NCBI GenBank assembly: GCA_022571845.1
Contig: JACZXB010000001.1
Coordinates: 459,037-523,036, forward strand
Origin: Candidatus Zixiibacteriota bacterium
Lineage (GTDB): Bacteria > Zixibacteria > MSB-5A5 > GN15 > FEB-12
Reading direction: 5' to 3'
DNA: 64,000 nt
Made by a program: the position numbers and the translations under genes. The notes beneath the pieces were generated by a model that did no database searches, was not told the origin of the DNA, and worked only from the letters and a program-made list of their open reading frames with translations. Shown here piece by piece: positions 2,165 to 47,669 of the stretch; position 1 is the first letter of the stretch, and each line of letters starts with the position of its first letter.

Positions 2165-2219
2165 TTTCTATTTGATAAATTAAGCAGGATTATCAAAACT
2201 GCATTAATACGAAAGTTCA

Positions 2220-3095: not shown

Positions 3096-3104
3096 GGTGG
3101 ATCT

Positions 3105-4094: not shown

Positions 4095-4126
4095 CAGACC
4101 TCCGGAAGTAGTTTATCAATAAATCC

Positions 4127-5014: not shown

Positions 5015-5110
5015 TAGCGATTCTGTTTATAACTCAATTTCCTCAATTTGATCACAAATCAGTATTATAAAAGGCTTATACTCGATTGCACGGCATAGGT
5101 TTCACCATTT

Positions 5111-5959
5111 TCAGCGAGCCACTATTAATGCCACAATTCCCAGCAGCATGCCGGCTTTGAGACCTATTGAGCCCATTCTCAGCATTCTGCGGCTGGGATT
5201 ACCCCAGATGGAAATTAAAAGGAGCAATAAAGGCAGGTCAATTATGTAAATAGTCAGTATCTCGTAAGCCTTTCCGAACCAGCCGGCAATGATGGGTATG
5301 AATGTTAAGACAACCATGATGAAAAACAGAATAAGCACCGCCAGCACAGCTCTGGATTCTCCAACTACCTGGGGAAATGTCCTGATTCCCACCCGCCTGT
5401 CACCTTCGATATCCTCAACGTCCTTCAATATTTCTCTGGCCAGATGAAAGAAAAAGGCAAAAAGTGCCGGTATCATTGGTCCGGGCAATGCAAAAGTCAG
5501 CAGCTCATCTACTGCCAGCCCGCCTGTTAGAAAAGTGAGAGCGCCCAGTAGTGCGATTATCAAATTTCCAAATATAGGTATCTTCTTAGCCTTAAAATTG
5601 TAAAGTGCCAGCAAGGCAATTGCCAGAACAACCGCGGTTAACACCTGCCAGTTGATCGCCAGAGCGACGACTAATGCCAGTAGTGTCAAAGCTATGGCCA
5701 GTTTTGTTGCCGCACTTTTTGAAATATCACCAGCGGGCAGAACGCGTTTTGGCTGGTTGATCAGGTCAACGTCAATATCCACAATATCATTTACAACATT
5801 GCCGGCGGCACAAACGAGAAAAGCTGCAACCGCAGACATTACCGGCGCATAATAGACTGTTGACGTCCAGGTGAAATATGCGCCAATTAAGACTGCCGAA
5901 GCTGCAATGATGCAGTTTATAGCGCGAATAAGTTTTAGATAATCCAGGAAAGCCCACAT
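5111..5959 (-). CDS. UbiA-family prenyltransferase (DGGGP-synthase-like size and motifs)
   Basis: The protein is polytopic. The first Asp-rich motif is NDIVDIDVDLINQPKRVLPAG and the second is KDVEDIEGDRRVG. Length is 282 aa. Confidence 0.8.
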   Translation of the reverse strand: MWAFLDYLKLIRAINCIIAASAVLIGAYFTWTSTVYYAPVMSAVAAFLVCAAGNVVNDIVDIDVDLINQPKRVLPAGDISKSAATKLAIALTLLALVVALAINWQVLTAVVLAIALLALYNFKAKKIPIFGNLIIALLGALTFLTGGLAVDELLTFALPGPMIPALFAFFFHLAREILKDVEDIEGDRRVGIRTFPQVVGESRAVLAVLILFFIMVVLTFIPIIAGWFGKAYEILTIYIIDLPLLLLLISIWGNPSRRMLRMGSIGLKAGMLLGIVALIVAR

Positions 5960-5997
5960 CTAAAAAGAATAGAACCGGCAGATGTTACAGTCAACTT

Positions 5998-19763: not shown

Positions 19764-19775
19764 CGAGTTCTCCAA

Positions 19776-23669: not shown

Positions 23670-24077
23670 CAACCAGGCATAATTCCCGGCCAGGAAGCTT
23701 GCAGATATAAATCTACAGTTTCAGGGCCTTTTAGGCGTTTAATTTCAATCCAGCTCTATTTGAGCCATTTACACCAAAAAACACATTAACTGTAGAACTA
23801 TATATTTTCTCCTGTTTGCATTTTATAAACCGCTGTAATGTAGCAAGTTCCCTTAATTAAGTCAATATCATTGCAGGGTTTATTGTAATCTATCTATAGC
23901 AATACATCGGCCAATTATGCCTGACCTTTAGGATGTCATAATTAAGTACCTGTATTGCAACAACTTAGGTGCATTTGTGACAAAGGGGAAACACCGGCAA
24001 TATCTGCGATTCTTGAGAAAAAAGGCAGATTTTATGACAACCGTTGCACAAAAAGGAAGTCTAAAAGCACCGCCAGT

Positions 24078-27363: not shown

Positions 27364-27867
27364 TTATTCTCCGAAGCCCTGTGACATATTTGCTTCCTCA
27401 ACTACTCCCCAATCTTTCTGATAATAACCTCTTGCCAAATAATCATGAATCGACGAATGTTCATGCTCAAACGGGCTTCGCGTCAATCCATGCTTGACCG
27501 GATTGTAATGTATATAATCCAAATGCTTTTTTAAATCATCTTCGTTACGAATAATATGATCCCAGAATCTGTGCTGCCAGACCCTGCCGCTAGTTAGTCC
27601 TAATTTTGAGCGATACAGACCGGAAAACTTCTGCTTTATGCCTTTCATAATTTTTGAGATGTCGTTCTGCATTGTGTCAATTATAAGATGGAAATGGTCG
27701 GGTAGTATCACCCAGGCCTTAAGACCCAATGGGAATTTTGCTTTGGTATGATTCAGCGCCGCCCAAAATTCATTTATGTTCTTGATGAGAATAGGCTTTC
27801 GGTTTAACGTTACGCAGGTGACGAAGATTTCTTTGCCGTTCGGATTATATCGCCGAAGATTTGACAC
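27364..27867 (-). CDS. REP-associated tyrosine transposase (RAYT, IS200/Y1 HUH family)
   Basis: It is colinear with E. coli TnpA-REP (YafM). The HUH motif is LPDHFHLII, and other motifs are RFWDH and the catalytic-Tyr motif DYIHYNPVKHG. The start is GTG. Confidence 0.9.
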   Translation of the reverse strand: MSNLRRYNPNGKEIFVTCVTLNRKPILIKNINEFWAALNHTKAKFPLGLKAWVILPDHFHLIIDTMQNDISKIMKGIKQKFSGLYRSKLGLTSGRVWQHRFWDHIIRNEDDLKKHLDYIHYNPVKHGLTRSPFEHEHSSIHDYLARGYYQKDWGVVEEANMSQGFGE

Positions 27868-34252: not shown

Positions 34253-35980
34253 CTAAAAGGAAATTGATTCCTCAGATAATGAGCCGGAAATCTTACTGGT
34301 GCGCCGGGCCAGATCAGCCAGTCCAAGCTGCGAGTAAGTCTTAAAGTCAAGAATAAACGAAGTCCCGAGGTTCTCTTCTGATTCTATCCTGATATCAATT
34401 CCCAGAACTTCTGCTAATCTGTGCACAATAGCTAATCCCAGGCCAGTACCCCCTTTTCTGGTCGAGAAAAACGGCTGAAAAGCTTTATTGGTTAATTCTG
34501 CCGACATACCGGGGCCATTATCTATTACTTCCAATCTTACGATTTGCTGCTCAGCAAGGTATAAGACTTTGAAAGTTATCTCGCCCGGTTGACCTTCGAA
34601 AGCCTGACAGGCATTAACCGCCAAATTTATCAAAATCTGCTTAATAAGATCTTCATCACCGATCACATAAACTATTGACTCTTCTGAATCAAGATTTACT
34701 TTGATATTTGAATTTATTGATTCGTCCCGGTAAAGAATTTCCATAGTTTCTGAAATCAGATGACACAATTCAACTTTGTTGAATGTCCTATGCTCAATAC
34801 TGGCATATTGAAGAAATTTTGTTAGCATTTTGGTTAAGCGATCAGATTCCTTAATTATCAGGTCCATCAGCTGCTGATTACTGCCTTCCAGATTCAATTC
34901 ATTTTTTATTACTTCTACAGAGCCAGATATTGCTGCCAGGGGGTTTCTGATTTCATGGGCGATACAGGCCGATAATTCGCCAATAGCCGACAATCTGTCT
35001 GCTGACCTGACCTTGTGTTCTAATTCTTTGGCTTCAGTCAAGTCAGTAAATATCACAATAAGTCCGCGCAGCCCACCATCGGGTTCTGTTAATACAGATG
35101 TTGACAGTCCCAATGGAATAACATTACCTTTGCTTACTTCGATCTGCAATTCCTTTCTGGGAAATTCGATTCTTTCGTTTATACCTGCCTTAAGACATCT
35201 GGCGAGTTCTGGCATCTTCTTTTGAAAAACGGTGTGGCAATCCTTGCCCCTGATATCCTTTTCTTTGAAACCCGTGATTATCTCTGCGGCTCTGTTAAAA
35301 AATATAATCACGCCTCTGGCATCGATGCTCATCAGCCCCGAACTGAGATGTCTGAGGATGTCGTCTGTTTCAAGTTTGGCAATTCTAAGCGCTCTTGAAG
35401 TATCTTCCAGTTGCCTGGCGCCGGACTTAATTCTTTCAGCCAGATAGCCTGAGATAAATGCTACCAGATAGAAGATCAAAAAATGGAAAAAGATAGCATA
35501 GAACAATCGTTCCTTGCCGGCAAAAAACCTGGTCAGTTCTTCGATTGATAAAGACAAATGAGCATCTATGATATAAACAAGCCATACTATTATGCTCAAA
35601 GCCGAAGAAACAATTGTGGCCATCAAAAGTGTACCAGCCAGCCGGTAAACCAGAGCGGCAGAGGCTATGGTCAAAACAAACATCGCTGTAAGTGGAGAAC
35701 TTATGTCACCGGTGGAGTAGACAACAACTGACTCTAAAGCAATTTCGCATACAAAGTGAAGCGCCACAACCCAGGGAGTTATCATCGAAAGCTTGCGCTT
35801 GAACTTCTTTGTAAGAGATACTCCTACAGCAAGAGTCAGAAGTGAATAGATAATGACAGGCAGCTGGATAAAGCCGGGGAAATCCATCCAGAGCACAATT
35901 GCCGCAAATAGAATTACATAAGACGCCAGTCTGAGCGGCAGAAACCAGTCAATTCTTTCCAGATGTCTATTTCTTGTCAT
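34253..35980 (-). CDS. Sensor histidine kinase (multi-TM + PAS + HisKA + HATPase), PilS-like architecture
   Basis: It has about 6 N-terminal TM helices, a PAS region (GLMSIDARGVIIFFNRAAEIITG), the H-box CIAHEIRNPLAAISG, and N/G boxes NLAVNA and DNGPGM..GTGLGLAIV. I chose the ATG at 35980. The track uses TTG 35989. Confidence 0.85.
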   Translation of the reverse strand: MTRNRHLERIDWFLPLRLASYVILFAAIVLWMDFPGFIQLPVIIYSLLTLAVGVSLTKKFKRKLSMITPWVVALHFVCEIALESVVVYSTGDISSPLTAMFVLTIASAALVYRLAGTLLMATIVSSALSIIVWLVYIIDAHLSLSIEELTRFFAGKERLFYAIFFHFLIFYLVAFISGYLAERIKSGARQLEDTSRALRIAKLETDDILRHLSSGLMSIDARGVIIFFNRAAEIITGFKEKDIRGKDCHTVFQKKMPELARCLKAGINERIEFPRKELQIEVSKGNVIPLGLSTSVLTEPDGGLRGLIVIFTDLTEAKELEHKVRSADRLSAIGELSACIAHEIRNPLAAISGSVEVIKNELNLEGSNQQLMDLIIKESDRLTKMLTKFLQYASIEHRTFNKVELCHLISETMEILYRDESINSNIKVNLDSEESIVYVIGDEDLIKQILINLAVNACQAFEGQPGEITFKVLYLAEQQIVRLEVIDNGPGMSAELTNKAFQPFFSTRKGGTGLGLAIVHRLAEVLGIDIRIESEENLGTSFILDFKTYSQLGLADLARRTSKISGSLSEESISF

Positions 35981-35988
35981 ATATAGCA

Positions 35989-36010
35989 ACGGCGCCCTGG
36001 TGGGCGCCGT
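35989..36010 (-). other. GC-rich 9-bp hairpin between pilC and the kinase gene
   Basis: The sequence is ACGGCGCCCtggtGGGCGCCGT. No clear T-run follows on either strand, so its role (terminator, attenuator or stabiliser) is unclear. Confidence 0.4.
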
Positions 36011-36051
36011 CCTGCTTAGTTTATTATCAAATCAGCTACAATTTCTTATCG

Positions 36052-37248
36052 TTAGATTTTTCCAATGATGTCGAACATTGGCAGATACATAGCTATCAAT
36101 ATACCACCAATGACAATACCCATAAATACAATAATGATTGGCTCTATTATAGAAGTCAGAGCAGTTACAGCTTCATCCACTTCTTCGTCATAGAAATCTG
36201 CAATCTTGCTGAGCATGTCATCCAGGCCACCTGTCTTTTCACCAACAGCAATCATTTGAGTGACCATTGGAGGAAAAACTCCAGATTCTTTCAGCGGGCC
36301 GGTAATCGTATCACCTTCGGCGATTGACAGAACTGACTTGTTTATCGCGTTTGCGATAACCACGTTACCTGCGGTTTTAGCAGTAATCTCCATAGCTTCA
36401 ATAATTGACACACCAGACGATAGCAGGGTTCCCAAGGTACGAGTAAACCTTGCCACCGCAGATTTTCTAATCAAGTTTCCAAATATTGGTGTCATAAGCA
36501 TGAACTTATCAAATAGAAGCGCACCAGTCGGAGTTTTCTTCCACCATAAAAGACCGACAACAGATCCTATCGAACCGACTATCAGGTAAAGAAAGTAGTC
36601 TTGCAAGAAATGCGAAATTCCCAAAACATACTGAGTAGGCATCGGCAGTTCCGCGTTTAGCCCTCCGAACATCTTAGCAAAGACAGGAACGATAAACGTC
36701 AACATACCAACTGTTACACCAGCGGCCACTACTACGATAACGGACGGATAGACCATGGCGCCTTTTACCTTACGAATCAGCTGGTCTGATTTTTCGCGAT
36801 ATGCTGCCAAACGCATAAGAATGACATCCAGTGCACCACCGACCTCACCTGCCTGTACCATATTTGAATAGAGCTGGTCAAATACTTTGGGATGGCGTGC
36901 CAGAGCATCGGCCAGAGTAGCACCGCCCTGTACACCTTCTTTTACCTGTGTGATAACCTTAGCGAGTTCAACACTATCAGTCTGAGACGCCATGATTTCC
37001 AAGCATTGGACCATGGGCAGCCCGGCGCCAATCATGGTAGCAAACTGGCGGGTAAACCGGGATATATCTAAGCGACTTATGCCGGTTCCGAATTTTATGT
37101 TTAGGTCCGGAGCTTTCCTGGTTATCGAGGTAACCAGAATACGGTTCTGCCTTAAAACACGCTCAAGATCCTCTTTGCTTTTCGCTTTAAGCGAGCCCTG
37201 GACTGGTGCTCCGGCTAATGTTTTTCCTTTGTATTCAAAAACTGCCAT
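36052..37248 (-). CDS. pilC: Type IV pilus platform protein PilC (GspF family)
   Basis: It shows the duplicated T2SS-F architecture with three TM segments and motifs such as GEVGGALD and GEKTGGLDDML. Confidence 0.9.
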   Translation of the reverse strand: MAVFEYKGKTLAGAPVQGSLKAKSKEDLERVLRQNRILVTSITRKAPDLNIKFGTGISRLDISRFTRQFATMIGAGLPMVQCLEIMASQTDSVELAKVITQVKEGVQGGATLADALARHPKVFDQLYSNMVQAGEVGGALDVILMRLAAYREKSDQLIRKVKGAMVYPSVIVVVAAGVTVGMLTFIVPVFAKMFGGLNAELPMPTQYVLGISHFLQDYFLYLIVGSIGSVVGLLWWKKTPTGALLFDKFMLMTPIFGNLIRKSAVARFTRTLGTLLSSGVSIIEAMEITAKTAGNVVIANAINKSVLSIAEGDTITGPLKESGVFPPMVTQMIAVGEKTGGLDDMLSKIADFYDEEVDEAVTALTSIIEPIIIVFMGIVIGGILIAMYLPMFDIIGKI

Positions 37249-37275
37249 TTACTTAGCCTCTTTCAACCTGCACAA

Positions 37276-38373
37276 CTAACTGAATGCAGGAGATCTTTGA
37301 ACTTTACTTTTCTGGAGCATTTCCGTCAACTCCTGAGTTGAACCGCTATGCGCCATTGCATCGTTTATTGTAATTTTGCCGGTCTCGTATAATTCTGCCA
37401 GTGATTGATTCATTGTCTTCATGCCATATTTTTGCCCGGCCTGTATCATGGAATACAGTTGATGAACTTTATCATCACGTATCAGTGCCCGAATAGCAGG
37501 CGTTACCACCAATATTTCCATGGCCAACACACGTCCGCCGCCAATTTTGGGAATCAACGTCTGTGATACTATCGCCTGAAGAGTGAACGAAAGCGTAACC
37601 CGTACTTGCTCCTGCTGATTTGCGGGAAAAGAATCTACTATTCTGTTGACAGATTCTGCAGCAGAGTTTGTATGCAATGTAGCAAAAGCAAGGTGTCCGG
37701 TCTCTGAAATTGATAGCGCCGACTCAATTGTCTCCAGATCTCTCATCTCACCCACCAGTACTACATCTGGGTCTTCCCTTAACGCGTATTTTAGAGCTGT
37801 GGCGAAAGAGGCTGTGTCAGAATACACCTCGCGCTGGTTAACCAGAGATTTCTTATGGCGATGCAGGTATTCAATCGGGTCTTCTATGGTAATTATATGA
37901 ACGGCTCTTTCTCTGTTAATTTTGTCAATCACAGACGCCAGGGATGTTGATTTCCCTGAACCGGTGGGTCCGGTAATGAGTACCAGCCCGCGAGGAAGAT
38001 CTGCAAAATCCGCGATTACTTTGGGCAATCCGAGCTCTTCAAACGTCTTTACTTCATAAGGAATCTGCCGCAGTACCACTGCAACGTTGCCTCGCTGCAT
38101 GAACATATTGGCGCGAAACCTGCTCATCTGCTCAATTCCGAATGAAAAATCCAGTTCGGAGTTTTGTTCAAATTTGAGCTTCTGCTTTTCGTTGAGCATC
38201 GTATAAGCTATCTTCTTGGTATCTTCACTTGTCAGCGGGTCATAATTCAGAGGCTGAAGCTTTCCATCGACCCGGACGACCGGAGGAGCCCCGACAGTAA
38301 TATGTAAATCAGAAGCTCCCATCTTGAACATTTCTTCAAGCAGTTCACGCAGACCTACCATGGTTTTCCCCAT
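37276..38373 (-). CDS. pilT: Twitching-motility retraction ATPase PilT
   Basis: The N-terminus contains GASDLHITVGAPPVVRVDG. Walker A is GPTGSGKST. Other motifs are VGEMRDLETI and ATLHTNSAAESVNRI. Confidence 0.9.
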   Translation of the reverse strand: MGKTMVGLRELLEEMFKMGASDLHITVGAPPVVRVDGKLQPLNYDPLTSEDTKKIAYTMLNEKQKLKFEQNSELDFSFGIEQMSRFRANMFMQRGNVAVVLRQIPYEVKTFEELGLPKVIADFADLPRGLVLITGPTGSGKSTSLASVIDKINRERAVHIITIEDPIEYLHRHKKSLVNQREVYSDTASFATALKYALREDPDVVLVGEMRDLETIESALSISETGHLAFATLHTNSAAESVNRIVDSFPANQQEQVRVTLSFTLQAIVSQTLIPKIGGGRVLAMEILVVTPAIRALIRDDKVHQLYSMIQAGQKYGMKTMNQSLAELYETGKITINDAMAHSGSTQELTEMLQKSKVQRSPAFS

Positions 38374-38502
38374 ATTTAAACGGTTTAATCGGCTCTTTGG
38401 ATACTTACTATTTATCGGTAAAAAACGAAGGTTCCTTGAGTTTTATTTGTAGAATCAGGGCTGTAAGTTGCTGAAAGACAAAGCCCTACAATAGCGATAT
38501 TT

Positions 38503-40203
38503 TTATATGACAGACGCCGTATTGGCGAAGACCTCATCAATGCTGACCAGACCCTGCTTCATCTTTTCAATAGCAGACATGCGCAGGCTGTACATACCTT
38601 CATCCAGGGCCGTCTTTTGAATTTGAGCATCGCTGCCTCTATCAAGAATCAGCTTTTCAATAGCTTGGGATATAGGCATGATTTCAAATATAGCTGTTCT
38701 GCCCGACTGTCCGGAATCACCGCACTCGTCGCAGCCAGTTCCTTTGAAAGCTCTTAGATTTGACAAGCAGATTGACGGTACGCCGAGACTCTCTACTTGA
38801 TCTTTAGTCAGATTGATCTCCGTTTTACAGTTCTGGCAGATTTTTCGAACCATTCTTTGTGCCAATATTAATTTTGTGGCCGAAGCTACCAGATAAAACG
38901 GTACATCCATATCCATCAAACGGTTAATAGATGACGGAGCATCATTAGTATGCAAGGTGGAAAAGACAAGGTGACCGGTAAGAGCTGCGCGAATGGCTAT
39001 TTCTGCTGTCTCGCCGTCACGAATTTCTCCAAGCATTATAATATCCGGGTCCTGTCGCAAAAACGACCTGAGGGTATTTGCAAATGTTAGACCTATATCG
39101 GATTTGACAGCGACCTGATTGATGCCATCGAAGTTAAATTCAACGGGGTCTTCGGCTGTCATAATATTAACGTCCACAGTATTGATTGTTTTTAAGGCAG
39201 AATACAAAGTCGTAGTTTTACCGGAACCCGTCGGTCCGGTAACCAAAATTATGCCATATGGCAGGTGAACAGCTCTTCTGAAACTATCGAGATCTTCGGT
39301 TCTAAATCCGAGCTTGGTCATATCGACCATCAAAGCCATCGGGTCCAGGATTCGCATGACAACTTTTTCTCCGAATATCGTTGGCAGACAAGAAACACGA
39401 AGGTCTACTGTTCTTCCGGCGATTTTGACTTTTACACGGCCGTCCTGAGGCAGACGACGTTCGGATATATCCAGCTCTGCCATAATTTTAATACGTGAAA
39501 TAATCGCCGCCCTGTACTTGAAAGGCAGTGGCGGCAGTTCTCGTAAATCACCGTCTACACGGTAGCGGACACGAATCCGCTTTTCATAGGTTTCAAGGTG
39601 AATATCAGAGGCTCCTATTCGAATAGCATCGGCAATTATTGAATCAACCAGTTTTACCAGCGGCTTATCCTGAATGGCAGAAAGCAGGTCAGACTCATCA
39701 GGAGCCGACTCACTTGAGACTACTTCTAAACTATCATCCGCATCAAGGCTGGCAACAATGTCAGAAAGCGCTCCTGTATCTCTATACTGTGCTTCGATAG
39801 CTTTTTCGATGGCGTTTTCGGGTGAAATGACTGGCTGAACGGTGCAGCCAGTTATAAATTTTATAGCGTCTAATACATAAACATTATTGGGATCACCTAT
39901 AGCGACCAGAAGGTTTTTGCCAATTTTCGAGATTGCTATGACTTTGAACTTGCGGGCGATATCCAGCGGAATCATCTTGACGATATCCGGATTCAGCTCA
40001 ATGTCACTAAGCTTAAGGGCGCCAATCTTCAAGTGCTTTCCGATAAACTGCGCTATGTCATATTCTGACTCAACAGCGCCGATTTTGACCAGGGCAGCTT
40101 CAAATTTCTCGCTCTCGCTTTTGACCAGCTTTAGCGCTTTGTCGGCCTGTTCCTGAGTAATCTTGCCGTGTTTTACTAGTATGTTGCTGAGTTCTATAGC
40201 CAT
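38503..40203 (-). CDS. pilB: Type IV pilus assembly ATPase PilB (GspE family)
   Basis: It has an N-terminal T2SSE_N-like domain, GASDIHLE, Walker A GPTGSGKTT, LGEIRDGETA, and the tetracysteine CQNC..CDEC. Confidence 0.9.
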   Translation of the reverse strand: MAIELSNILVKHGKITQEQADKALKLVKSESEKFEAALVKIGAVESEYDIAQFIGKHLKIGALKLSDIELNPDIVKMIPLDIARKFKVIAISKIGKNLLVAIGDPNNVYVLDAIKFITGCTVQPVISPENAIEKAIEAQYRDTGALSDIVASLDADDSLEVVSSESAPDESDLLSAIQDKPLVKLVDSIIADAIRIGASDIHLETYEKRIRVRYRVDGDLRELPPLPFKYRAAIISRIKIMAELDISERRLPQDGRVKVKIAGRTVDLRVSCLPTIFGEKVVMRILDPMALMVDMTKLGFRTEDLDSFRRAVHLPYGIILVTGPTGSGKTTTLYSALKTINTVDVNIMTAEDPVEFNFDGINQVAVKSDIGLTFANTLRSFLRQDPDIIMLGEIRDGETAEIAIRAALTGHLVFSTLHTNDAPSSINRLMDMDVPFYLVASATKLILAQRMVRKICQNCKTEINLTKDQVESLGVPSICLSNLRAFKGTGCDECGDSGQSGRTAIFEIMPISQAIEKLILDRGSDAQIQKTALDEGMYSLRMSAIEKMKQGLVSIDEVFANTASVI

Positions 40204-40278
40204 ACCTATTGCCTGTACTTAGCTCCTGTCCATTTACAGCTTAAACAAGTCTACGAGTTTTGGTATAAGCGTTAGTGC

Positions 40279-40770
40279 TTAGTCCTGAAAAATATCGTCC
40301 AGCTTTTCCTGAGCACGCTCGACAAAATCACCTTCAACAGCGCTCTTACGGCCTGAGGCAGACTTCTCTTTTATCTCCTCAAAAATCTTAGTTAAGCCGT
40401 TAGCGGTTTCCTTGGCATATAGGCGGACCATTCCGATTGTTGTACGGTCGTCAAAAATAACTACTAAAATTGAACGATCTCCGACTATAGACATGTGGAT
40501 ATGGTCTTTCTTGCCTTGATGAAATAAAACCGAAAACTCCGGTTCGCCGACCAGCCTTGCTATCTCTTTTGTCGAAGCAAACGAACCGGCCAGAAGGGCT
40601 GCCAGCGCAGTAGTATCAAGAGAGTGCGTGAACCCCAGACGGGTAATAAGGTGGCCGTCTTTATCGACCAACAGAGCACACTTTGCTTCTGCTCCTTTAA
40701 GCATCTTGGATATCAGAGCTTCTATCTGATTTATTTCTTCTTCGTAAATTATCAGGCTATCATCAGACAT
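40279..40770 (-). CDS. mglB: MglB (Roadblock/LC7 GTPase-activating partner of MglA)
   Basis: It is colinear with Myxococcus MglB, with motifs YEEEINQI, LLVDKDGHLI, LDTTALAALLAG, ILVVIFDDRTTIGMVRL and LTKIFEE. Confidence 0.85.
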   Translation of the reverse strand: MSDDSLIIYEEEINQIEALISKMLKGAEAKCALLVDKDGHLITRLGFTHSLDTTALAALLAGSFASTKEIARLVGEPEFSVLFHQGKKDHIHMSIVGDRSILVVIFDDRTTIGMVRLYAKETANGLTKIFEEIKEKSASGRKSAVEGDFVERAQEKLDDIFQD

Positions 40771-40787
40771 TCCTGCCTCCTAAATAT

Positions 40788-41987
40788 TTATTTAATTCCA
40801 AACAATTTCTTAAATATGCTGCGCTTCTTCTGCTCTCGTCGTTTAAGCGAAGGCGCCATCTTGGGAGCGTGTGTACCATAATCTTCCATAGCGGCCGAAT
40901 CGCCTGAGGCTGAATCACTACTTGTGATATTTTTTTCACTTTGATTCATGCCGGGATACGGTCTATCATCCATTTCAGAATTTTCCTCTCCTGAAGGGTC
41001 CGCCTGTTTTGCGCCCGGATAAGGACGATACGCAGGAATTCTGTCGTCAGTCGCCGATGTCGCCGGCGTATCGGCTGTAGCCACTTCGGCTGATGGTTGG
41101 CCCTGAACCTGAGGAGTAGCAGTCGGCGCTGCATAGGGATCGTTACCTAAGGGTTGAACCGAAGGATCGGCCAGCGGCCCATCTGGGTCTGGCTGACCGG
41201 CTGGCGGGGCTACAACTTGAGCAGAAGGCTCTGCTACAGCCGGCTGTGATACCGCAGGTGCCTGAGGCGCCGCAGGCACCTGAGGTGCCGCAGGTGCCTG
41301 AGGTGCCGCAGGTGCCTGAGGTGCCGCAGGTGCCTGAGGTGCCGCAGGTGCCTGAGGTGCCGCAGGTGCTTCGACAGCTGTTTTCGAAGTATTGCTTGAT
41401 ACCTGAGAATTTTTAGCTTTTTCCAGGACAAGTTTGATAATCAGTTTGAGCGTATCAAAAACTCCAGTTCCCACAGTAGCTGAAGCCTCAAAAGTAGGGA
41501 AATTATAAGTATTAAGCTTTTGATCCATCTCTTCCGTTGTCATTATATTGGGAAGGTCTCGTTTGTTATATTGAATGACCAGTGGCAGCTGACTAATATC
41601 GTAACCATATTCTTTGAGGTTATCTATCAGGTTCGCCAAAGCTTCAATATTTTCGTCCATTTTGTCAGGCTGACTGTCAGCAACAAATACAACGCCGTCT
41701 ACACCCCGCAAAACTAATTTACGAGTAGCATTGTAGTAGACCTGGCCGGGCACAGTATAGAGCTGAAACTTGGCCTGAAATCCATTGATTGTACCAATAT
41801 TAATTGGTAGGAAATCAAAATAGAGAGTCCGGTCTGCTTCAGTCGCCAGAGATATAAGATCTCCACGTGTTGTGCTGGGCACTTTGGTGTGGACATATTG
41901 CAAGTTGGTAGTCTTGCCCGATAAGCCCGGACCATAATAGACAATTTTGCAGCAGACCTCTCGCGCCGAGTAGTTTATTGATACCAT
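40788..41987 (-). CDS. mglA: MglA-family Ras-like GTPase with a roughly 200-aa proline-rich C-terminal extension
   Basis: Residues 1-195 are near-colinear with M. xanthus MglA ([68 protein letters not shown]). An (APAAPQ)n low-complexity tail follows. Confidence 0.9.
41252..41368 (-). repeat. 18-bp in-frame tandem repeat, about 6.5 copies, encoding (APAAPQ)n
   Basis: The plus-strand unit CCGCAGGTGCCTGAGGTG is repeated head to tail. Four central copies are identical, and the first two carry 1-2 substitutions. Confidence 0.95.
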
Positions 41988-42013
41988 TTACTTCTTCCTG
42001 CTATGCTTAGTTT

Positions 42014-42355
42014 TTAACTTACCGTTTTTAATCGTGATATTGCGTTCTTAATTTCAAGTCGGATTAGACCAATATTCACTTCTTTATCTGTAGTTACTAC
42101 CAAAATGCCGAGTCCGGCATCGCTGAAAAATAGCTTGGCGTCATCAGCTTCTATTGTAACATGTTTTAAAGGGCTGCTCTGGAGACGCTTCAATGATTTG
42201 TGGATGTTGGCTGTTATCGATGCCGCCAGGGCTCCGATTGTGTCGTCTTCCACATTTTCCTGCAGGTTTGCCGCAATAACGATACCATCATTGCCGACCA
42301 CCATTGAGCCGGTAATGCCAGTTGTTTTGTTAAGTTCACTTAGTATTTCATGCAT
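42014..42355 (-). CDS. Stand-alone Roadblock/LC7 domain protein (MglC-like)
   Basis: The 113-aa product has GITGSMVVGNDGIVIA..DTIGALAASI..FFSDAGLGILVVTTDKEVNIGLIRLEI. It overlaps the upstream gene by 8 nt. Confidence 0.75.
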   Translation of the reverse strand: MHEILSELNKTTGITGSMVVGNDGIVIAANLQENVEDDTIGALAASITANIHKSLKRLQSSPLKHVTIEADDAKLFFSDAGLGILVVTTDKEVNIGLIRLEIKNAISRLKTVS

Positions 42356-43331
42356 ATGATTTCTCCATTGCCGGGCGCAGCATCTCGCTGTACCTCTCGG
42401 ACATATATTTCTTAACCATTTCCATTGCTTGATTTATGCGAATATTTAATAAATCATCACTATGTCTTTCTGCTATTACCATAAGACAATATGACTCTTC
42501 ATAGCAGAGGACTACCCTGTCATTACTTAACTGAAATTCTACTCTTTCCGGACAGCCGTAGCTAAGGAAGTTCATGCTTCCGGCTCCGTCTGCCTTAATA
42601 AGCAAAGCAAAGGGAGCAACATCCTCTGCAATTATTCCGCCGCGTGTAAAGTTCGATAACAGCAGACCTTCATGGTCAACTACTGCGGCCAGCTTAACAG
42701 AGCTATGTTCACCAATATATCTGGTAGCCTTATCAAATCCCTGAGCGTCTCCGCCAATCACTGGTGACTCTGTTGCAGGTCGGTTTTCGAGACCTGATTG
42801 ATTCTGAACCGGACTGGGAGGCGGAGAATCGGGTCTGCTAGCGTTTTTTTCTTTAGTAACTACAAAGGTAGAAGTTCCGGTCTCTACTGAATCAGCTGTG
42901 ATAATATCTGACGGCCGTGGGCGACGAATACGCGGTCGACTGAAAAATATCTCATCCATAGTGCTCTTGATTATGAACTGGGTTGCAAAAACCTGGAAAA
43001 GCAAACTCGGCAAATATCCGTACATCCCCATAGAAAAGGCAACACCGCTGCTTATGTTATAAAAGGCAGAAAGCAAAACAGAAAATATTGAACTTATTAG
43101 CAATCTGTAGCCCAGCCCAATAAAAACGATTGCTACCATTTGCATGGCGTTACCCTGTCTGTATAAAACGAAAGTAAGCAGCAAATAGAAAAGAAGCTCC
43201 AGGACAATATTAGTCGAAGAATAGTTCTGCAGAAATGTTCCGAGGTTTTCCGGATACAATATCAGCGGCACGACCAATAAGATTAGCGAATACAACAGTA
43301 GTCGTTTTGCAGCTTCAACTGATAAGTTCAT
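42348..43331 (-). CDS. Polytopic membrane protein with a C-terminal Roadblock/LC7-like domain
   Basis: It has about 5 TM helices in the first 130 aa, then a Pro/Ser linker, then KLAAVVDHEGLLLSNF..APFALLIKA..VVLCYEESYCLMVIAERHSDDLLNIRINQAME. Confidence 0.6.
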   Translation of the reverse strand: MNLSVEAAKRLLLYSLILLVVPLILYPENLGTFLQNYSSTNIVLELLFYLLLTFVLYRQGNAMQMVAIVFIGLGYRLLISSIFSVLLSAFYNISSGVAFSMGMYGYLPSLLFQVFATQFIIKSTMDEIFFSRPRIRRPRPSDIITADSVETGTSTFVVTKEKNASRPDSPPPSPVQNQSGLENRPATESPVIGGDAQGFDKATRYIGEHSSVKLAAVVDHEGLLLSNFTRGGIIAEDVAPFALLIKADGAGSMNFLSYGCPERVEFQLSNDRVVLCYEESYCLMVIAERHSDDLLNIRINQAMEMVKKYMSERYSEMLRPAMEKSYA

Positions 43332-44212
43332 ATAGCACCTGCTGTTTTTGCATAATTTGACATCAGTCCGTCAATTTTCATGCGAACGTTGCCCAAATTA
43401 GCTTTTTTACCTGCCACGAAAATAAAAATACCTTTAGAGTTCTGATTTATATAAAAAGTTGATTCTGCTGCTTCTATAAGAACGTTTTGCACGTTGCCAA
43501 AGGAGTTATTTACAAGTTCACTGCTGAGCATTTTCCAGATTTCTGACAAAACAGCCCCGCAGTCATTTACTTCCAGAGGACTTCTCCATTCAGAATCAGC
43601 TACCAGACCGTCCTGGCTAACAAGCATAGCGCCTTTTAGTCCTTTTATTGTCAGAGCTTCGGTAAGCATGTCATGCAGTTCAAATGGCTTGGCTGGCTTA
43701 GTTTCTGTTTCATCTATCCTGTCAGCTGAATCTGAGCTGCTGCCTGACGGGGCTCCGGTAATTATGGTCTCGTCCAAATAGGCATTTTGTTCTTCCGGAA
43801 TTTTCTGTGCAATCTCCAGTAGTTTTTGAATCTGCGGATTTTCGGGGTCGCGGCTGAGGAGTTCCTTCAAGAGCTTTATGGCATGCGAAAATTCGCCTTT
43901 ATAGATGTAGATTTCTGACAGTAGAAGTTCAACTGAGCGGGTACGACCGTCAAGATCAGCTGCACGTTTGGCTTCAATCTCTGCCCAGTCATATTGACCA
44001 CGGTCGAGATTTATTTTAGACATAACGACATGAGCAGAGCCGTAATCGTCATGCACTTTCAGTCCGTTTTTACACACTTTAAATGCCAGGTCCAAGTCTC
44101 CCTTTTTGCGATATGCCTCCGCCAAGGCGGCAAAAATCTGTGAGTTAGGATCAGAGTCTAAAATTCTCTGACACTTCTCTATTCTATCATCTAATTCTGA
44201 TACAGTCGCCAT
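43328..44212 (-). CDS. TPR repeat + Roadblock/LC7-like fusion protein
   Basis: N-terminal TPR-like repeats read AEAYRKKGDLDLAFKVCKNGLKV and SEIYIYKGEFSHAIKLLKELL. The C-terminal domain reads LKGAMLVSQDGLVADS..GAVLSEI..IFIFVAGKKANLGNVRMKI. It overlaps the downstream gene by ATGA. Confidence 0.65.
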   Translation of the reverse strand: MATVSELDDRIEKCQRILDSDPNSQIFAALAEAYRKKGDLDLAFKVCKNGLKVHDDYGSAHVVMSKINLDRGQYDWAEIEAKRAADLDGRTRSVELLLSEIYIYKGEFSHAIKLLKELLSRDPENPQIQKLLEIAQKIPEEQNAYLDETIITGAPSGSSSDSADRIDETETKPAKPFELHDMLTEALTIKGLKGAMLVSQDGLVADSEWRSPLEVNDCGAVLSEIWKMLSSELVNNSFGNVQNVLIEAAESTFYINQNSKGIFIFVAGKKANLGNVRMKIDGLMSNYAKTAGAI

Positions 44213-44326
44213 AAAAACAAATACTCATTGTAACTTGTTTTGCCATAAGTTCTTGCGCAATTAAAAATTCCGCCTTGCGCCCACTTTATTTCAAGCCAGA
44301 TTTAACGCCAAATAACAAGTAAATTC

Positions 44327-44698
44327 TCAGCTTAACGTATTTCTGGCGCTAAAAACCCCAAATGCAAAAAGTCCCGACATCAGAAGCAGCATTAATGGAG
44401 CAAATAGCTCCGGCAGTGTAAAAAACTCCATCGCCGAAGCGATACTTGCCAGCTGGCTTATAGCCAGAAGCACGAAACCAAGGAAAAACATCTGCCAGCT
44501 CCTGCTCAGATAACCACCTTTTACCTGTCCCAGTACCTGGAAAGAACCAAACAAACAGGCTCCGGCAACTATCAATACGAACAGGCTGAACATCGTCGGC
44601 GGACTGGCTATAACTGCCAGGTTGGCGGCCTGGACATCACTGCCCAACCCTGCACTAATTAAAATTCCAATAAATAAACACTTTTTCATCTTAATCAC
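44327..44698 (-). CDS. Small membrane protein (signal peptide + 3 TM)
   Basis: The signal ends DVQAA and three hydrophobic helices follow. It overlaps the DUF4388 gene by 8 nt. Confidence 0.55.
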   Translation of the reverse strand: MIKMKKCLFIGILISAGLGSDVQAANLAVIASPPTMFSLFVLIVAGACLFGSFQVLGQVKGGYLSRSWQMFFLGFVLLAISQLASIASAMEFFTLPELFAPLMLLLMSGLFAFGVFSARNTLS

Positions 44699-45896
44699 CT
44701 CGTACCATATGAACTACTTTTTCTGCCCTTTTTAAGGATCTATAGTAATCGTTTTCTATTCCATATTTCTTGACTAAATCTCGCTTCTTTGCCAGCGGCT
44801 CGGATATTTCTCTTTTTACTCCGTTAAGCGTGCGCCGGAATGGACCTTCGCCCAAAATCATGAATACATATTCCAGTTGTTCGGTGAGCATGCCGGTTAA
44901 ACCGCTAAGCAATACATGCACCCGGATATGAGTAGGAATTGATCTGACTGCGCTAAGGAATTTTTCCTGTGAGGGCATCAATTCTGAGCCCGGATCTACC
45001 CCCGGAAAATAACTCAAAATTCCTGAGCGATACTGAGAAGCAAAATTTGAAAACCTGGTGTTGTTCTCTCCCAGTAAATCCTCTACCGTAGTACGAATCC
45101 TGTAAAAGGCGTTGCTGAACAGATAAAAGATTAGAGACAGAACCGCTTCTTCTTCATCCTCTTTTTCTTCAGAACTTTCTTCCCGTTCGCCAGTTACTTC
45201 TATCAAATTTCCTAATATCAACTTGTAAACTGCACGACAAGTGACGAACTCTCCAAAAGGCGAAGCTTGTATCATTTCCGGCAAAGTTCTTTCGCCATTT
45301 ATCATAGACAGTACCCGAAATTCTTCCATAGTCAGTCTGACTTCATCACTGTTTGTCTTGGGTGAAGCGACTACAGACAACATCATTTCATCTGGCGGCA
45401 GCACCTTTTGAATTTCCAGCCATTCATCAATACGGCGGGTACCTTCCATGACGATACTCATGGTGGTGAGCTCTACTAAAAAAGGTGCGTTTTTGGGACT
45501 GGTGCCTTCGTGGAAAACGAAGTTTCCTTCCTGCCAAGAAAACAAATTATAGACTATTTCTTCAATTTGGAATTTCAGACACTCTGCGATTTCATCTTTT
45601 TCAAAAAGATTCATATCCACCAGTGTGGTACCCAGCTGTCTGCCGGTCTGCTTGTGCAGAGTTATGGCACGCTCTAACTGGTCCTTGGAAAGTTTTCCCT
45701 TACGCAGCAGCATATTCCCCAGCAAATCTTCGCTAGTATTTAATGACGAAGCGTAAATGATGTTGCCGTTTTTAAACGCTACTTCCTTTTGCCTGGCACT
45801 GGTGTTTACTTCCAGAACTCCTGTCTTCTTGCCAGTTGACAATAACTGCAGGATATCCGAGAATGAGACTGTTTTTAAATTCCCTGACAAACTCAT
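44691..45896 (-). CDS. DUF4388 (PATAN-like) domain protein
   Basis: The N-terminal hallmark is GNLKTVSFSDILQLLSTGKKTGVLEV....VAFKNGNIIYASS. It is the first gene of the MglA block. Confidence 0.7.
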   Translation of the reverse strand: MSLSGNLKTVSFSDILQLLSTGKKTGVLEVNTSARQKEVAFKNGNIIYASSLNTSEDLLGNMLLRKGKLSKDQLERAITLHKQTGRQLGTTLVDMNLFEKDEIAECLKFQIEEIVYNLFSWQEGNFVFHEGTSPKNAPFLVELTTMSIVMEGTRRIDEWLEIQKVLPPDEMMLSVVASPKTNSDEVRLTMEEFRVLSMINGERTLPEMIQASPFGEFVTCRAVYKLILGNLIEVTGEREESSEEKEDEEEAVLSLIFYLFSNAFYRIRTTVEDLLGENNTRFSNFASQYRSGILSYFPGVDPGSELMPSQEKFLSAVRSIPTHIRVHVLLSGLTGMLTEQLEYVFMILGEGPFRRTLNGVKREISEPLAKKRDLVKKYGIENDYYRSLKRAEKVVHMVRGD

Positions 45897-46000
45897 TTTT
45901 TATTCCCTCTGACAGACCCGATATTATTGAATATTCCCTCATTCGGGCTCAATTCCCTTTATTTATCGGGTATTTCAGGGGATAACTTAAGGTAGAATCG

Positions 46001-46669
46001 TCAAAACTGAGAGACTTGGAAACTACTGTCAGTTCGGTTCTTAAGCTTGATCCGACAGCCTCCGGTTTGCCCAATATCCGTAACTATTTTCTGGTATTTT
46101 TCAGCAGGCAAAAAACCAGCGTCTTTCTGTTCAATTCTTGAACAGACCAGCTGCTCTAAGTTGCTTTGACTTTCGATAATTTTTTCAATTTCCGAGCGGG
46201 CGATCTTACTTCTTCCGCAATAAATAACCAGTGACTGCTTTGCTAAGGAAACTTTATTATCCCCGGACAGAATATTCTCATTTGCTATCAATATCGATGA
46301 ATTATCCAATTCAAGCTCTATTAGATTTTTCGAGGGATAATAGCCCGGCAATAATTTATTAGAATTCTCTGCCGAAAATGACTCAATCGTGATTGTGCCG
46401 TAATTTGCAAAAAGTGTCCGGCTGATGTCCGAAAAGCTCTTTTCTATCCTGGCGTCTACTATGACAGATTTGGCCTGATAGCTAAGGCAGAGTCTGTAAA
46501 TGTCATCGATAGCTCCATACTCCGATGACATCACAAAAACCTGGCCGAGCCCCTCCACACCTAATTCATCAAAGGCCGAGCTGAAAATTCGTTCATCTAT
46601 TGGGTACGGTTTCCGAGTCAAGCCGCTGATTATCAAGTCTGGCACCTGGCTTTGATTCTGATAAATCAA
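46001..46669 (-). CDS. Hypothetical protein, possibly a degenerate C-terminal (MBL-like) remnant of ComEC/Rec2
   Basis: Only a TTG start is available. The frame stays open upstream to the stop at 46736 and there reads IDIFNIPGGTAILIY..LIISG, which resembles the DVGQGDAxLI..LIDxG entry of the ComEC lactamase domain. The C-terminus TDIGQTGGCRIKL resembles TDxxGAI. The metal ligands are not conserved. Confidence 0.4.
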   Translation of the reverse strand: MIYQNQSQVPDLIISGLTRKPYPIDERIFSSAFDELGVEGLGQVFVMSSEYGAIDDIYRLCLSYQAKSVIVDARIEKSFSDISRTLFANYGTITIESFSAENSNKLLPGYYPSKNLIELELDNSSILIANENILSGDNKVSLAKQSLVIYCGRSKIARSEIEKIIESQSNLEQLVCSRIEQKDAGFLPAEKYQKIVTDIGQTGGCRIKLKNRTDSSFQVSQF

Positions 46670-47034: not shown

Positions 47035-47062
47035 TTGACAAAGCCCGATAAATATGTAGCTT
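47035..47062 (+). promoter_or_regulatory. Possible sigma70-type promoter for the HTH-like gene
   Basis: It reads TTGACA-N16-TAGCTT, where the -10 keeps only T1, A2 and T6. It lies about 40 nt upstream of the GGAGG-ATG. Confidence 0.35.
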
Positions 47063-47102
47063 TGCGTTGTCATTACTTAAGCGAAAAACAGGAGGACTTA
47101 CA

Positions 47103-47669
47103 ATGGTAAAAGGTATCGGAAATGACCCTATGGTAAAAGCTCTGACTAAAGAGCTTGAAGAAATACTTCGTAGGGCGGCAGAGATTAAAAAATTCATCAA
47201 TGACACTTACGTTTATCGGGGAGCTTCTCCACTCTATACAGATGTTGATTATGTCCCCGCTGGCGGTACACTAAACCTTGCTCACGATCAATATTTTGGT
47301 AAAGGGCTGGCTACTGCTGGAAAAGAATTTCTTCAAGCTAAGGGACGGGCTGCCCCCTCTGACGAAATTTTTGAAGCTTTCAATAAAGGAGGCTTCGAGT
47401 GGCCTACAAACTGGAAAGAACGAGACAGATTAAAGAATCTTGCAATATCACTAAGCAAGAATCGCTATGATTTTGTTATTGTTCGAACAAGCAAAGGCCA
47501 AGCGTATGGATTGTATGAATTCTATCCTGAAAAAATGAAAGAAAGGGAACGGAAAAAACAGGGGAAATCTAATGAAACTGAGTCTGCCAATAATGGCTCC
47601 CCCGCAACAATTGAAAAGGTTGAATCAACAGAAACTAAGATTGAAGAGAGTAAAAATGAGGGGAATTAA
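47103..47669 (+). CDS. Hypothetical DNA-binding protein with a HARE-HTH-like winged-helix core and a Lys/Glu-rich tail
   Basis: The ATG at 47103 lies 7 nt after GGAGG. The track ORF starts at an upstream TTG. The segment AGKEFLQAKGRAAPSDEIFEAF...YDFVIVRTSKGQAYGLYEFYPE follows the HARE-HTH pattern (compare RpoE ..WGLRSWYP). This assignment rests on pattern recall only. Confidence 0.55.
   Translation: MVKGIGNDPMVKALTKELEEILRRAAEIKKFINDTYVYRGASPLYTDVDYVPAGGTLNLAHDQYFGKGLATAGKEFLQAKGRAAPSDEIFEAFNKGGFEWPTNWKERDRLKNLAISLSKNRYDFVIVRTSKGQAYGLYEFYPEKMKERERKKQGKSNETESANNGSPATIEKVESTETKIEESKNEGN

Follow-up and report, generated by a model that had tools for sequence, protein, structure and literature searches.

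An MglA/MglB module with additional Roadblock proteins adjoins the pilB, pilT and pilC genes in Candidatus Zixiibacteriota

What might a bacterial Ras-like GTPase, encoded among four Roadblock-domain proteins, be doing beside the genes of a type IV pilus motor? The question is raised by a block of genes at 36052-45896 of a 64,000 nt stretch of contig JACZXB010000001.1 from Candidatus Zixiibacteriota; this whole stretch is referred to here as the window. MglA and MglB, both of which are encoded in the block, form the best-studied bacterial small-GTPase polarity switch, in which MglB is the GTPase-activating protein (GAP) of MglA. To our knowledge, nearly all mechanistic understanding of this switch comes from Myxococcus, where the genes for the partner proteins are scattered over the genome. 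The data assembled below make it reasonably probable that a membrane-tethered MglA/MglB polarity switch controls the adjoining type IVa pilus motor.

All eleven open reading frames (ORFs) of the original prediction were found, on the minus strand throughout, in the order DUF4388/PATAN, small transmembrane (TM) protein, TPR-Roadblock, TM-Roadblock, Roadblock, MglA, MglB, PilB, PilT, PilC and PilS-like kinase. The PATAN gene overlaps the gene for the small membrane protein by 8 nt, the TPR-Roadblock and TM-Roadblock genes overlap by 4 nt and the TM-Roadblock and Roadblock genes by 8 nt. The remaining junctions are gaps of 114, 26, 17, 75, 129, 27 and 62 nt in gene order, 17 nt separating mglA from mglB and 75 nt separating mglB from pilB, so that the proposed arrangement with short gaps (129 nt at most) holds. 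The block as delimited encloses ten of the genes, whereas the kinase gene (34253-35989) lies outside it. The shared orientation, which had been put forward as a feature of the block, was also confirmed, but it carries little weight because almost every gene of the window is on the minus strand.

The complete mglA gene (40788-41987, minus strand, as for all features below unless stated) encodes 399 aa. Its G domain (aa 1-195; 41403-41987) was aligned to M. xanthus MglA (6hjh) over residues 3-192 with 272 bits, and the P-loop GPGLSGKT, the intrinsic arginine (ADRTL) and the TVPGQ motif are all kept. Pfam matches were of the Arf/Ras type, Gtr1_RagA falling below its cut-off (18.4 against 22). Judged by the sequence of its G domain, the protein is of the Group-1 type and its long tail is an architectural variant; Group-1 proteins are single-domain proteins of ~195 aa, whereas the orthologues of the present protein measure 320-398 aa.

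The tail amounts to ~200 residues overall. The G domain is followed by a low-complexity linker of ~180 residues rich in Pro, Ala and Gln (40860-41402), within which an 18-bp tandem repeat of 6.6 copies (41252-41369, 95% match, Tandem Repeats Finder) encodes (PAAPQA)n. In the two closest relatives (L001 and L002) MglA is 376 and 365 aa long compared with 399 aa here, and the length of the linker therefore shifts between near-identical genomes. The linker varies freely in both sequence and length, and the protein ends in a motif (40791-40859; consensus KKRGFFKRLFGIK) that was present in 59/59 full-length Zixibacteria orthologues. We take this motif to resemble closely the membrane-targeting sequence of E. 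coli MinD, KGFLKRLFGG. A similar end, KKKKKKGFFSKLFGFLSGK, was found on the 438-aa MglA of a locus outside the phylum (L085, 8643-9959 of that locus). We infer that MglA may be tethered to the membrane by this basic amphipathic end, in a manner akin to the hypervariable region and basic anchor of Ras. An MglA with a membrane-targeting tail or a membrane anchor of its own was not found in the literature searched.

The mglB gene (40279-40770) lies 17 nt downstream of mglA, a spacing kept in 58 loci, and encodes a 163-aa Roadblock protein with a C-terminal helix. MglB matched Pfam Robl_LC7 with 50.6 bits and the NCBIfam MglB model with 93 bits, under the 200-bit equivalog cut-off, and was aligned to M. 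xanthus MglB (6izw) with 136 bits over residues 5-162, i.e. over its full length including the C-terminal helix. By sequence it is clearly the orthologue of the characterized M. xanthus protein, and a role as GAP is predicted for it. The single-domain Roadblock protein of 113 aa, encoded upstream of mglA (42014-42355), matched Robl_LC7 with 51.7 bits. Its top sequence matches in the PDB were Asgard Roadblock proteins (7yh1, E = 3.4e-8, phmmer); MglB was matched as well, and no chain named MglC was returned at E ≤ 1.

The two other Roadblock proteins are composite. The TPR-Roadblock fusion (294 aa; 43328-44212) gave several TPR matches in Pfam, with the TPR region at approximately aa 12-140 and the Roadblock domain at approximately aa 183-290. 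The latter was borderline against Robl_LC7 (22.3 bits, cut-off 23) and was recognized when the C-terminus was compared with the family of the 113-aa Roadblock protein by HHalign (97% probability, P = 2e-11). The 327-aa TM-Roadblock protein (42348-43331) had no Pfam match. In its AlphaFold2 model the N-terminus (residues 5-130) forms approximately five hydrophobic helices, residues 135-195 form a disordered linker, and a Roadblock domain follows (198-318) with the order alpha-beta-beta-alpha-beta-beta-beta-alpha, modelled at a predicted local distance difference test score (pLDDT) of ~90. At least three clearly membrane-spanning stretches were detected in the N-terminus by a hydropathy scan. 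In the PDB the Roadblock domain was closest in structure (Foldseek) to M. xanthus MglB and further members of the Roadblock family (E 3.5e-7; TM-score 0.72-0.83, on the target), and bacterial and Asgard Roadblock proteins together with LAMTOR2/3 were also matched, the last at E ~1e-6. A profile of 47 homologues of the TM-Roadblock protein matched, in the PDB, the roadblock light chain of dynein (E = 0.0056). Homologues numbered 83, and all that carried a source organism name were from Zixibacteria or the 'FCB group'.

The four Roadblock assignments on which the original prediction was built are thus upheld, those of MglB and the 113-aa protein by Pfam, that of the TPR fusion by HHalign profile comparison and that of the TM-Roadblock protein by AlphaFold2 and Foldseek. 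The same domain, profile and structural tests confirm that a single GTPase is accompanied by four proteins with Roadblock domains, of which one is anchored in the membrane.

The block begins with the PATAN protein (401 aa; 44691-45896), which matched Pfam PF14332 with 117 bits, residues 4-159 corresponding to profile positions 1-121, and which is 60-96% identical among Zixibacteria loci. The AlphaFold2 model (mean pLDDT 80) divides it into three parts: the PATAN domain, which contains an insert of four helices, then a small alpha/beta domain and lastly an all-alpha domain at the C-terminus. Foldseek gave no global PDB match, and the alpha/beta and all-alpha domains were likewise without a match. 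A receiver (REC) domain was not found, Response_reg being matched in neither Pfam nor NCBIfam and the C-terminus being all-alpha in the model.

Within the PATAN domain, the helical insert (aa 59-110; 45567-45722) is MshEN/GSPII-like. MshEN receptors of cyclic di-GMP (c-di-GMP) carry two tandem RLGxx(L/V/I)(L/V/I)xxG(L/V/I)(L/V/I)xxxxLxxxLxxQ motifs. Against NCBIfam NF053729, a model for the MshE-related c-di-GMP motif, the insert scored 51.1 bits (cut-off 38); the N-terminal motif of PilB scored 28.2 bits against the same model, which is under the cut-off. The modelled insert superposed on the c-di-GMP-bound GSPII-B domain of T. thermophilus PilF (8pdk_B) over 52 columns with a root mean square deviation of 1.0 Å, 36% identity and a Foldseek probability of 1.0. 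The insert may form a c-di-GMP site.

The small membrane protein (123 aa; 44327-44698) has a signal-peptide-like N-terminus and approximately three hydrophobic helices by hydropathy scan, and no match to it was found in Pfam or NCBIfam. Its gene was present in 64 Zixibacteria loci, with a median gap to the PATAN gene of 3 nt. In Synechocystis a PATAN domain binds the N-terminus of PilB1 as well as PilC's N-terminal domain, and is localized to the membrane through an unidentified partner (preprint, bioRxiv 10.1101/2021.06.11.447907).

The three motor genes were identified by family matches, well above cut-off for PilT (37276-38373; TIGR01420, 503.9 bits against a cut-off of 319) and narrowly above cut-off for PilB (38503-40203; TIGR02538, 678.6 bits against 675.65), which also matched PF00437 and, in its N-terminal MshEN/GSPII region, PF05157. 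PilC (36052-37248) matched PF00482 (T2SSF) with 224.7 bits and a Myxococcus-type PilC model with 496 bits, the latter under the equivalog cut-off. By these sequence matches the extension ATPase, the retraction ATPase and the platform protein of a type IVa pilus motor are encoded together. The multi-TM sensor histidine kinase that follows (34253-35989) contains PAS, HisKA and HATPase domains by Pfam, and its match to the PilS-like 6TM domain (26.0 bits) was just below the 27-bit cut-off. The listed start of this gene is a TTG at 35989, but its translation may instead begin at the in-frame ATG at 35980-35978 (MTRNRH...). The gene is kept 3' of pilC in Zixibacteria loci, and a PilR-type sigma-54 response regulator gene was not found adjoining it. 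The order pilB-pilT-pilC-pilS is that of the Myxococcus/Geobacter-type pil cluster. The kinase gene is followed by the gene of a 595-aa protein, which contains two rotamase domains of the PpiC type, and by a 210-aa ORF; both are syntenic across the phylum.

Conservation of the gene order was assessed in 80 loci (L001-L080) from species-level genomes, recovered with the MglA G domain, by BLAST of the window proteins against six-frame ORFs. MglA identity to these loci was 80-99%, the best two being 99% and 97%. The source genomes are labelled mostly Candidatus Zixiibacteriota or GN15, with a large batch labelled 'uncultured Ignavibacteriales', some unclassified and a few Calditrichota/Calditrichaeota or other. 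All eleven genes occurred in the same order in 46/80 loci, and the remainder were cut by contig ends. Wherever the contig was long enough a single order was seen: MurJ, a 222-aa ORF, PATAN, small TM protein, TPR-Roadblock, TM-Roadblock, Roadblock, MglA, MglB, PilB, PilT, PilC, PilS-like kinase, PpiC-type protein and 210-aa ORF. Eight loci were flagged as irregular; mglA lies 1.6 kb or less from a contig end in all eight, and the irregularities are for that reason read as cross-hits of the TPR-Roadblock query to another Roadblock gene. The spacing is also kept, with ~3 nt between the PATAN and small membrane protein genes, an overlap of 8-20 nt between the TM-Roadblock and Roadblock genes, 17 nt between mglA and mglB and ~72 nt between mglB and pilB. 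The gene order is therefore conserved in relatives, and coupling of the two halves of the block is not thereby proven.

The 222-aa ORF (46001-46669) has no family match. Many Zixibacteria loci have it upstream of the PATAN gene, at only 22-44% identity and set apart from that gene by ~120 nt that hold the promoter-like motif. As none was seen in the out-group loci, this ORF is probably outside the module.

Loci outside Zixibacteria were sought by an exhaustive HMMER search with MglB, from which representatives of 34-54% identity were taken, and their contigs were re-annotated with hidden Markov models of the Zixibacteria families. Word-index searches with the PATAN protein or with a profile of non-Zixibacteria MglB gave matches that were, among those listed, almost all from Zixibacteria, and few usable out-group MglB sequences. 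The out-group loci (L082-L091) are set apart from Zixibacteria by G+C content (GC; 26-60%) and by lower MglB identity. Two of them, of delta type (L082 and L083), carry an mglB-mglA pair only, with an MglA of 195 aa, and in L082 a PilB-like ATPase is encoded ~6.5 kb from this plain pair. The expanded module was found in five loci of 26-60% GC (L085, L088, L089, L090 and L091), its core being TPR-Roadblock, Roadblock, long MglA, MglB and PATAN.

The arrangement differs from locus to locus. The order in L085 is PATAN, a 225-aa protein, a 141-aa protein, Roadblock, MglA (438 aa) and MglB, near flagellar hook genes; in L088 it is PATAN, TPR, beta-propeller, TPR-Roadblock, Roadblock, MglA (281 aa) and MglB, near a CheA-like kinase; and in L091 a PATAN-cNMP gene on the opposite strand is followed by TPR-Roadblock, Roadblock, MglA (416 aa) and MglB. 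L089 and L090 share the order TPR-Roadblock, multi-TM protein with a Roadblock-like C-terminus, Roadblock, MglA (~400 aa), extended MglB (377 and 250 aa respectively), PATAN and a REC-containing protein with a C-terminal TM helix. The fusion of TPR and Roadblock is thus seen again in L088, L089 and L091, and a Roadblock gene of the 113-aa type is directly upstream of mglA in every out-group locus with the expanded module. The MglA proteins of L089 (8525-11134 of that locus) and L090 (8585-10753) have the linker and what appears to be a conserved folded C-terminal domain of ~110 aa, with no MinD-like end, and other out-group MglA proteins bear different C-terminal additions.

The multi-TM protein of L089 and L090 has the same position and architecture as the Zixibacteria TM-Roadblock protein, and the two were colinear over 239 columns in HHalign (38% probability, P = 3e-4), so that their equivalence is weakly supported at the sequence level. 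Metagenome scans with the L089-type protein, alone or as a two-sequence alignment, gave no matches, and the spread of this type outside Zixibacteria is consequently represented by L089 and L090. The 225-aa and 141-aa proteins of L085 and a 449-aa protein of L086 were also considered as Roadblock proteins and rejected, their profile similarity being too weak (P 0.004-0.3); they are positional equivalents only.

Pilus genes recur near this set of genes. In L086 (59% GC; 1428-7392 of that locus) Roadblock, MglA (197 aa), MglB, PATAN and a 188-aa P-loop (GTPase-like) protein are encoded directly upstream of pilM-pilN-pilO, which is a second, independent type of mgl-pilus gene junction, and pilin-like N_methyl genes lie less than 10 kb from the module in L089 and L090. 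Pilus genes were therefore close by in 3/6 out-group loci with the Roadblock-MglA-MglB-PATAN set. Since the core recurs without pilBTC, once beside pilMNO and twice near pilin-like genes, these data suggest that the mgl/Roadblock/PATAN set is an older, separable module that is found repeatedly near pilus genes. In this small out-group sample the mgl-pilBTC junction is specific to Zixibacteria.

A generic scan for sigma-70 promoters and terminators showed no enrichment of promoter-like sites and, within the block, no minus-strand terminator that was convincing. Intergenic regions were therefore compared by alignment across Zixibacteria loci. The alignments revealed a conserved TTGACA...TATA-like promoter 5' of the TPR-Roadblock gene, and a CCGATA(AAT) motif 5' of both the PATAN gene and pilT, of which the CCGATA core is conserved across the loci. 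Of the four exact matches to CCGATAAAT in the window, three immediately precede a gene on the strand that they match, namely 5' of the PATAN gene (45961-45969), 5' of pilT (38410-38418) and, on the plus strand, at 47045-47053, 5' of the ORF at 47067-47669. From its sequence this motif may be a -10-like promoter element or a site for a shared regulator. A GC-rich stem-loop between pilC and the kinase gene (35985-36016), with the consensus ACGGCGCC...GGCGCCGT across the aligned loci, has a folding energy of -25.2 kcal/mol (z = -4.0) and ends ~5 nt before the ATG at 35980-35978; it is likely to be a 3' end, an attenuator or a stability element. No conserved promoter or terminator element was found in the mglB-pilB gap. 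The likely transcription units, as read from these sequences, are [PATAN, small TM protein], [TPR-Roadblock to MglB, possibly with PilB] and [PilT, PilC], with the kinase gene separate.

How such a set of proteins might act can be proposed in outline. In M. xanthus MglA and SgmX recruit PilB, and MglA-GTP marks the leading pole (PMC11580455, PMC7519303); the Roadblock paralogue MglC bridges RomR and MglB, giving a pole of high GAP activity (PMC10329633). In Bdellovibrio the normal formation of pili requires MglA, which binds a TPR protein there (PMC3983030). By analogy, the cytoplasmic part of a motor (PilB, PilT and PilC, with the PilS-like kinase) here adjoins what would be a seven-gene spatial regulator built around a Group-1 MglA. 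MglA would be held at the inner membrane by its own MinD-like C-terminal motif at the end of a long flexible linker, and MglB would act as its GAP. The Roadblock domains of the other three Roadblock proteins may mediate pairing, of the kind that joins MglC to MglB in Myxococcus. The TM-Roadblock protein would then serve as membrane anchor, the 113-aa protein as bridge and the TPR-Roadblock protein as an arm for binding other proteins, much like SgmX and Bd2492, which are TPR effectors; any GAP or guanine nucleotide exchange factor roles among them are likewise putative. A platform fixed in the membrane in this way could concentrate or exclude GAP activity at one site of the cell, and so set where MglA-GTP persists. 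The PATAN protein, presumably translationally coupled to the small membrane protein, would be the output adaptor, contacting the N-terminus of PilB as well as PilC's N-terminal domain, as in Synechocystis, and its PilF/MshEN-like insert might add an input from c-di-GMP. Pilus extension would thereby be licensed locally, in the service of twitching, adhesion or DNA uptake, by an older and separable mgl module that would have become fixed beside pilBTC in Zixibacteria.

Several observations weigh against this model. Within the phylum the flanking genes (MurJ and PpiC-type) are as syntenic as the mgl-pil junction; since these housekeeping flanks are equally conserved, the constant order is evidence of vertical inheritance and not necessarily of selection for mgl-pil coupling, and the adjacency of the two blocks could be inherited rather than selected. 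The pilBTC genes were next to the module in none of the sampled expanded out-group loci (L085, L088-L091). Three or more transcription units are suggested by the conserved promoter-like motifs upstream of the PATAN and TPR-Roadblock genes and of pilT. A scan of window ORFs found no pilin, prepilin peptidase or PilMNOPQ, which may be encoded elsewhere in the genome, and no RomR/RomX-type partner was found within the window. Membrane binding by MglA is putative, being argued from sequence resemblance, and the hydrophobic moment of the tail, similar to that of MinD but low, did not discriminate. In the PATAN insert the first motif begins LLG in place of RLG, the first Arg being Leu, and the second reads RQLG...N. 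The description of the locus as a direct genomic fusion and a self-contained apparatus was consequently overstated, given the out-group core without pilBTC, the equally syntenic flanks, the several promoter-like motifs and the missing pilin and pilMNOPQ genes in the window.

The same observations can be read as a frozen neighbourhood, in which the module is a general polarity or membrane-site switch with another output, such as gliding, T9SS (type IX secretion system)-linked motility, the division site or envelope growth, and stands beside pilBTC through inherited synteny. MurJ, the 222-aa ORF, the PpiC-type protein and the 210-aa ORF keep their order as strictly as the block itself, among the out-group modules without pilBTC that of L085 neighbours flagellar hook genes and that of L088 a CheA-like kinase, separate conserved promoter-like motifs stand 5' of the PATAN gene, the TPR-Roadblock gene and pilT, PorU/PorV-like T9SS genes are present elsewhere in the window, and M. 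xanthus MglA also controls gliding (PMC9481161). This account is nevertheless unlikely in our estimation, considering that pilus genes are near the set in 3/6 out-group loci and a PilB-like ATPase is ~6.5 kb from mglBA in L082, that interaction of a PATAN domain with PilB and PilC has been demonstrated in Synechocystis, and that the mglB-pilB gap is short (~72 nt) and holds no conserved promoter or terminator. A more distant reading is that of a Ragulator-like signalling scaffold, in which heterodimers anchored by the TM-Roadblock protein tether MglA to the membrane chiefly so that a metabolic or second-messenger signal (for example from c-di-GMP by way of the PATAN insert, or from the kinase) is passed on, rather than polarity set, pili being only one of several outputs. 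The four Roadblock domains with one membrane anchor, the Foldseek matches to LAMTOR2/3 (E ~1e-6), the resemblance of the insert to the c-di-GMP-bound PilF GSPII-B domain, the conserved sensor kinase downstream and the actinobacterial conservons, which join a kinase, a Roadblock protein and an MglA-type GTPase (PMC4316618), would all fit. We regard it as very improbable, since the best structural matches are to MglB and not to LAMTOR, MglA is of the Group-1 polarity type with a cognate MglB and lacks the C-terminal Roadblock domain of Rag GTPases, no LAMTOR1-like wrapping subunit was found, a conserved hairpin separates pilC from the kinase gene and the c-di-GMP motif is degenerate at its first Arg. 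By analogy with MglA in Myxococcus and Bdellovibrio, and with the binding of cyanobacterial PATAN domains to PilB and PilC, the best interpretation is that the module helps to place or activate type IV pili; the pilus-polarity role originally proposed is retained in this form, with a coupling weaker than was claimed and a module that is separable.

Three further features were noted in the window. A probable T9SS component cluster at 16941-23672, ~13 kb from the pilus block, encodes a 1298-aa Peptidase_C25 (PorU-like) protein and a 944-aa PorV-domain protein; a Bat/MoxR-type cluster (BatA-VWA, DUF58, MoxR AAA_3 and BatD) occupies 87-5014 at the low-coordinate end; and an IS200-like Y1 transposase ORF lies at 27364-27867.

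The locus brings the switch, three extra Roadblock partners, a candidate PATAN adaptor and a motor together within ~10 kb, in a phylum-wide layout whose core occurs in other lineages, and so provides a compact and testable parts list. It bears on how bacteria hold a Ras-like GTPase at the membrane, how Roadblock platforms are assembled and by what path PilB and PilC receive a signal. The pre-eukaryotic evolution of GTPase-Roadblock platforms is touched upon as well, by the Roadblock protein with a membrane anchor and by the tail of MglA, which is Ras-like in joining a hypervariable linker to a basic anchor. More tentatively, and with appreciable doubt, it is possible that a membrane Roadblock platform is widespread in bacteria, in which TM-Roadblock, TPR-Roadblock, Roadblock and MglB form a fixed scaffold regulating a membrane-tethered MglA (with its Ras-like tail and MinD-like anchor), and a PATAN adaptor leads to PilB and PilC. 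If so, it would correspond in function, among prokaryotes, to the GTPase platforms of Ragulator type, and MglA would be connected to the pilus more simply, and through a compact set of genes, than by the SgmX/FrzS/SopA network of Myxococcus. The functional themes themselves (MglA/MglB, extra Roadblock partners, TPR effectors, contact between PATAN and the motor, and PATAN-Mgl linkage) are all known, and there is no new principle unless the Roadblock platform is true. Were the adjacency merely inherited synteny, the locus would remain a moderately interesting new architecture of a known module.

The composition had been described as unrecognized, which is true of the composite and not of its elements. 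PATAN genes near mglA/mglB and systems with a 1:2 ratio of MglA to MglB are noted in PMC4316618, which also cites Makarova 2006, and MglC, SgmX and Bd2492 were already known. In the literature searched the composite and a transmembrane Roadblock protein were nowhere described, and no paper naming both Zixibacteria and MglA was found among the results listed. The systems of PMC4316618 (Wuichet and Sogaard-Andersen 2015) are alike in that some Group 1 and Group 5 mglA genes are near PATAN genes and a subset of Group 1 MglA is accompanied by two MglB-family proteins; text finds in that paper gave no TPR-Roadblock fusion, no membrane-anchored Roadblock protein, no adjacency to pilBTC and no long tail on MglA that ends as MinD does.

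A close comparison is with the M. xanthus polarity module (MglA, MglB, MglC, RomR/RomX and RomY) and its pilus output (SgmX, FrzS and SopA). Both have a Group-1 MglA with intrinsic Arg finger and TVPGQ, an orthologous MglB with a C-terminal helix, extra Roadblock paralogues that possibly partner MglB as MglC does, a TPR-containing partner and an expected output through PilB. The Zixibacteria genes differ in being clustered, and beside pilBTC, and in encoding a 200-residue MglA tail with a MinD-like end, an integral membrane Roadblock protein, a TPR-fused Roadblock protein and a PATAN protein with a small membrane protein. No homologue of RomR/RomX, SgmX, FrzS or SopA was seen within the window. 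The order of the pair is also reversed, mglA preceding mglB here, whereas mglB precedes mglA in the operon of M. xanthus and in the plain pairs of L082 and L083. The hub of MglA, Bd2492 (TPR), RomR and CdgA in Bdellovibrio resembles the present system in that MglA is partnered by a TPR protein, the hub is linked to c-di-GMP and the formation of type IV pili at one pole is affected (PMC3983030), but Bdellovibrio has no MglB, and its TPR protein is not fused to Roadblock and is encoded with tamAB rather than with mglA.

The cyanobacterial PatA-type (PATAN-REC) regulators PixG, PixE, PilG and LsiR share with the present protein a PATAN domain with a two-repeat alpha-helical insert, and here too the PATAN gene is in the neighbourhood of pilB and pilC, coupled to a small membrane protein. 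The Zixibacteria protein, however, has no receiver, possesses a small alpha/beta and an all-alpha domain, and is linked to MglA/MglB and not to a chemotaxis-type system.

The analogy with Ragulator (LAMTOR1-5) and the Rag GTPases, which was part of the original prediction, is fair at the level of the fold, given the LAMTOR matches, while the features that define Ragulator are absent. In both systems a small GTPase is combined with a membrane anchor and with more than one protein of Roadblock fold, and the folds are similar to LAMTOR2/3. Here, however, the anchor would be a bundle of TM helices on a Roadblock protein, not a lipidated LAMTOR1 wrapping two Roadblock heterodimers. The GTPase is of the monomeric MglA type, with a low-complexity tail and no C-terminal Roadblock domain, whereas the Rag GTPases form a heterodimer and have such domains. 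A bona fide MglB, of the GAP type by sequence, is present, and the likely output is the pilus motor rather than TORC1.

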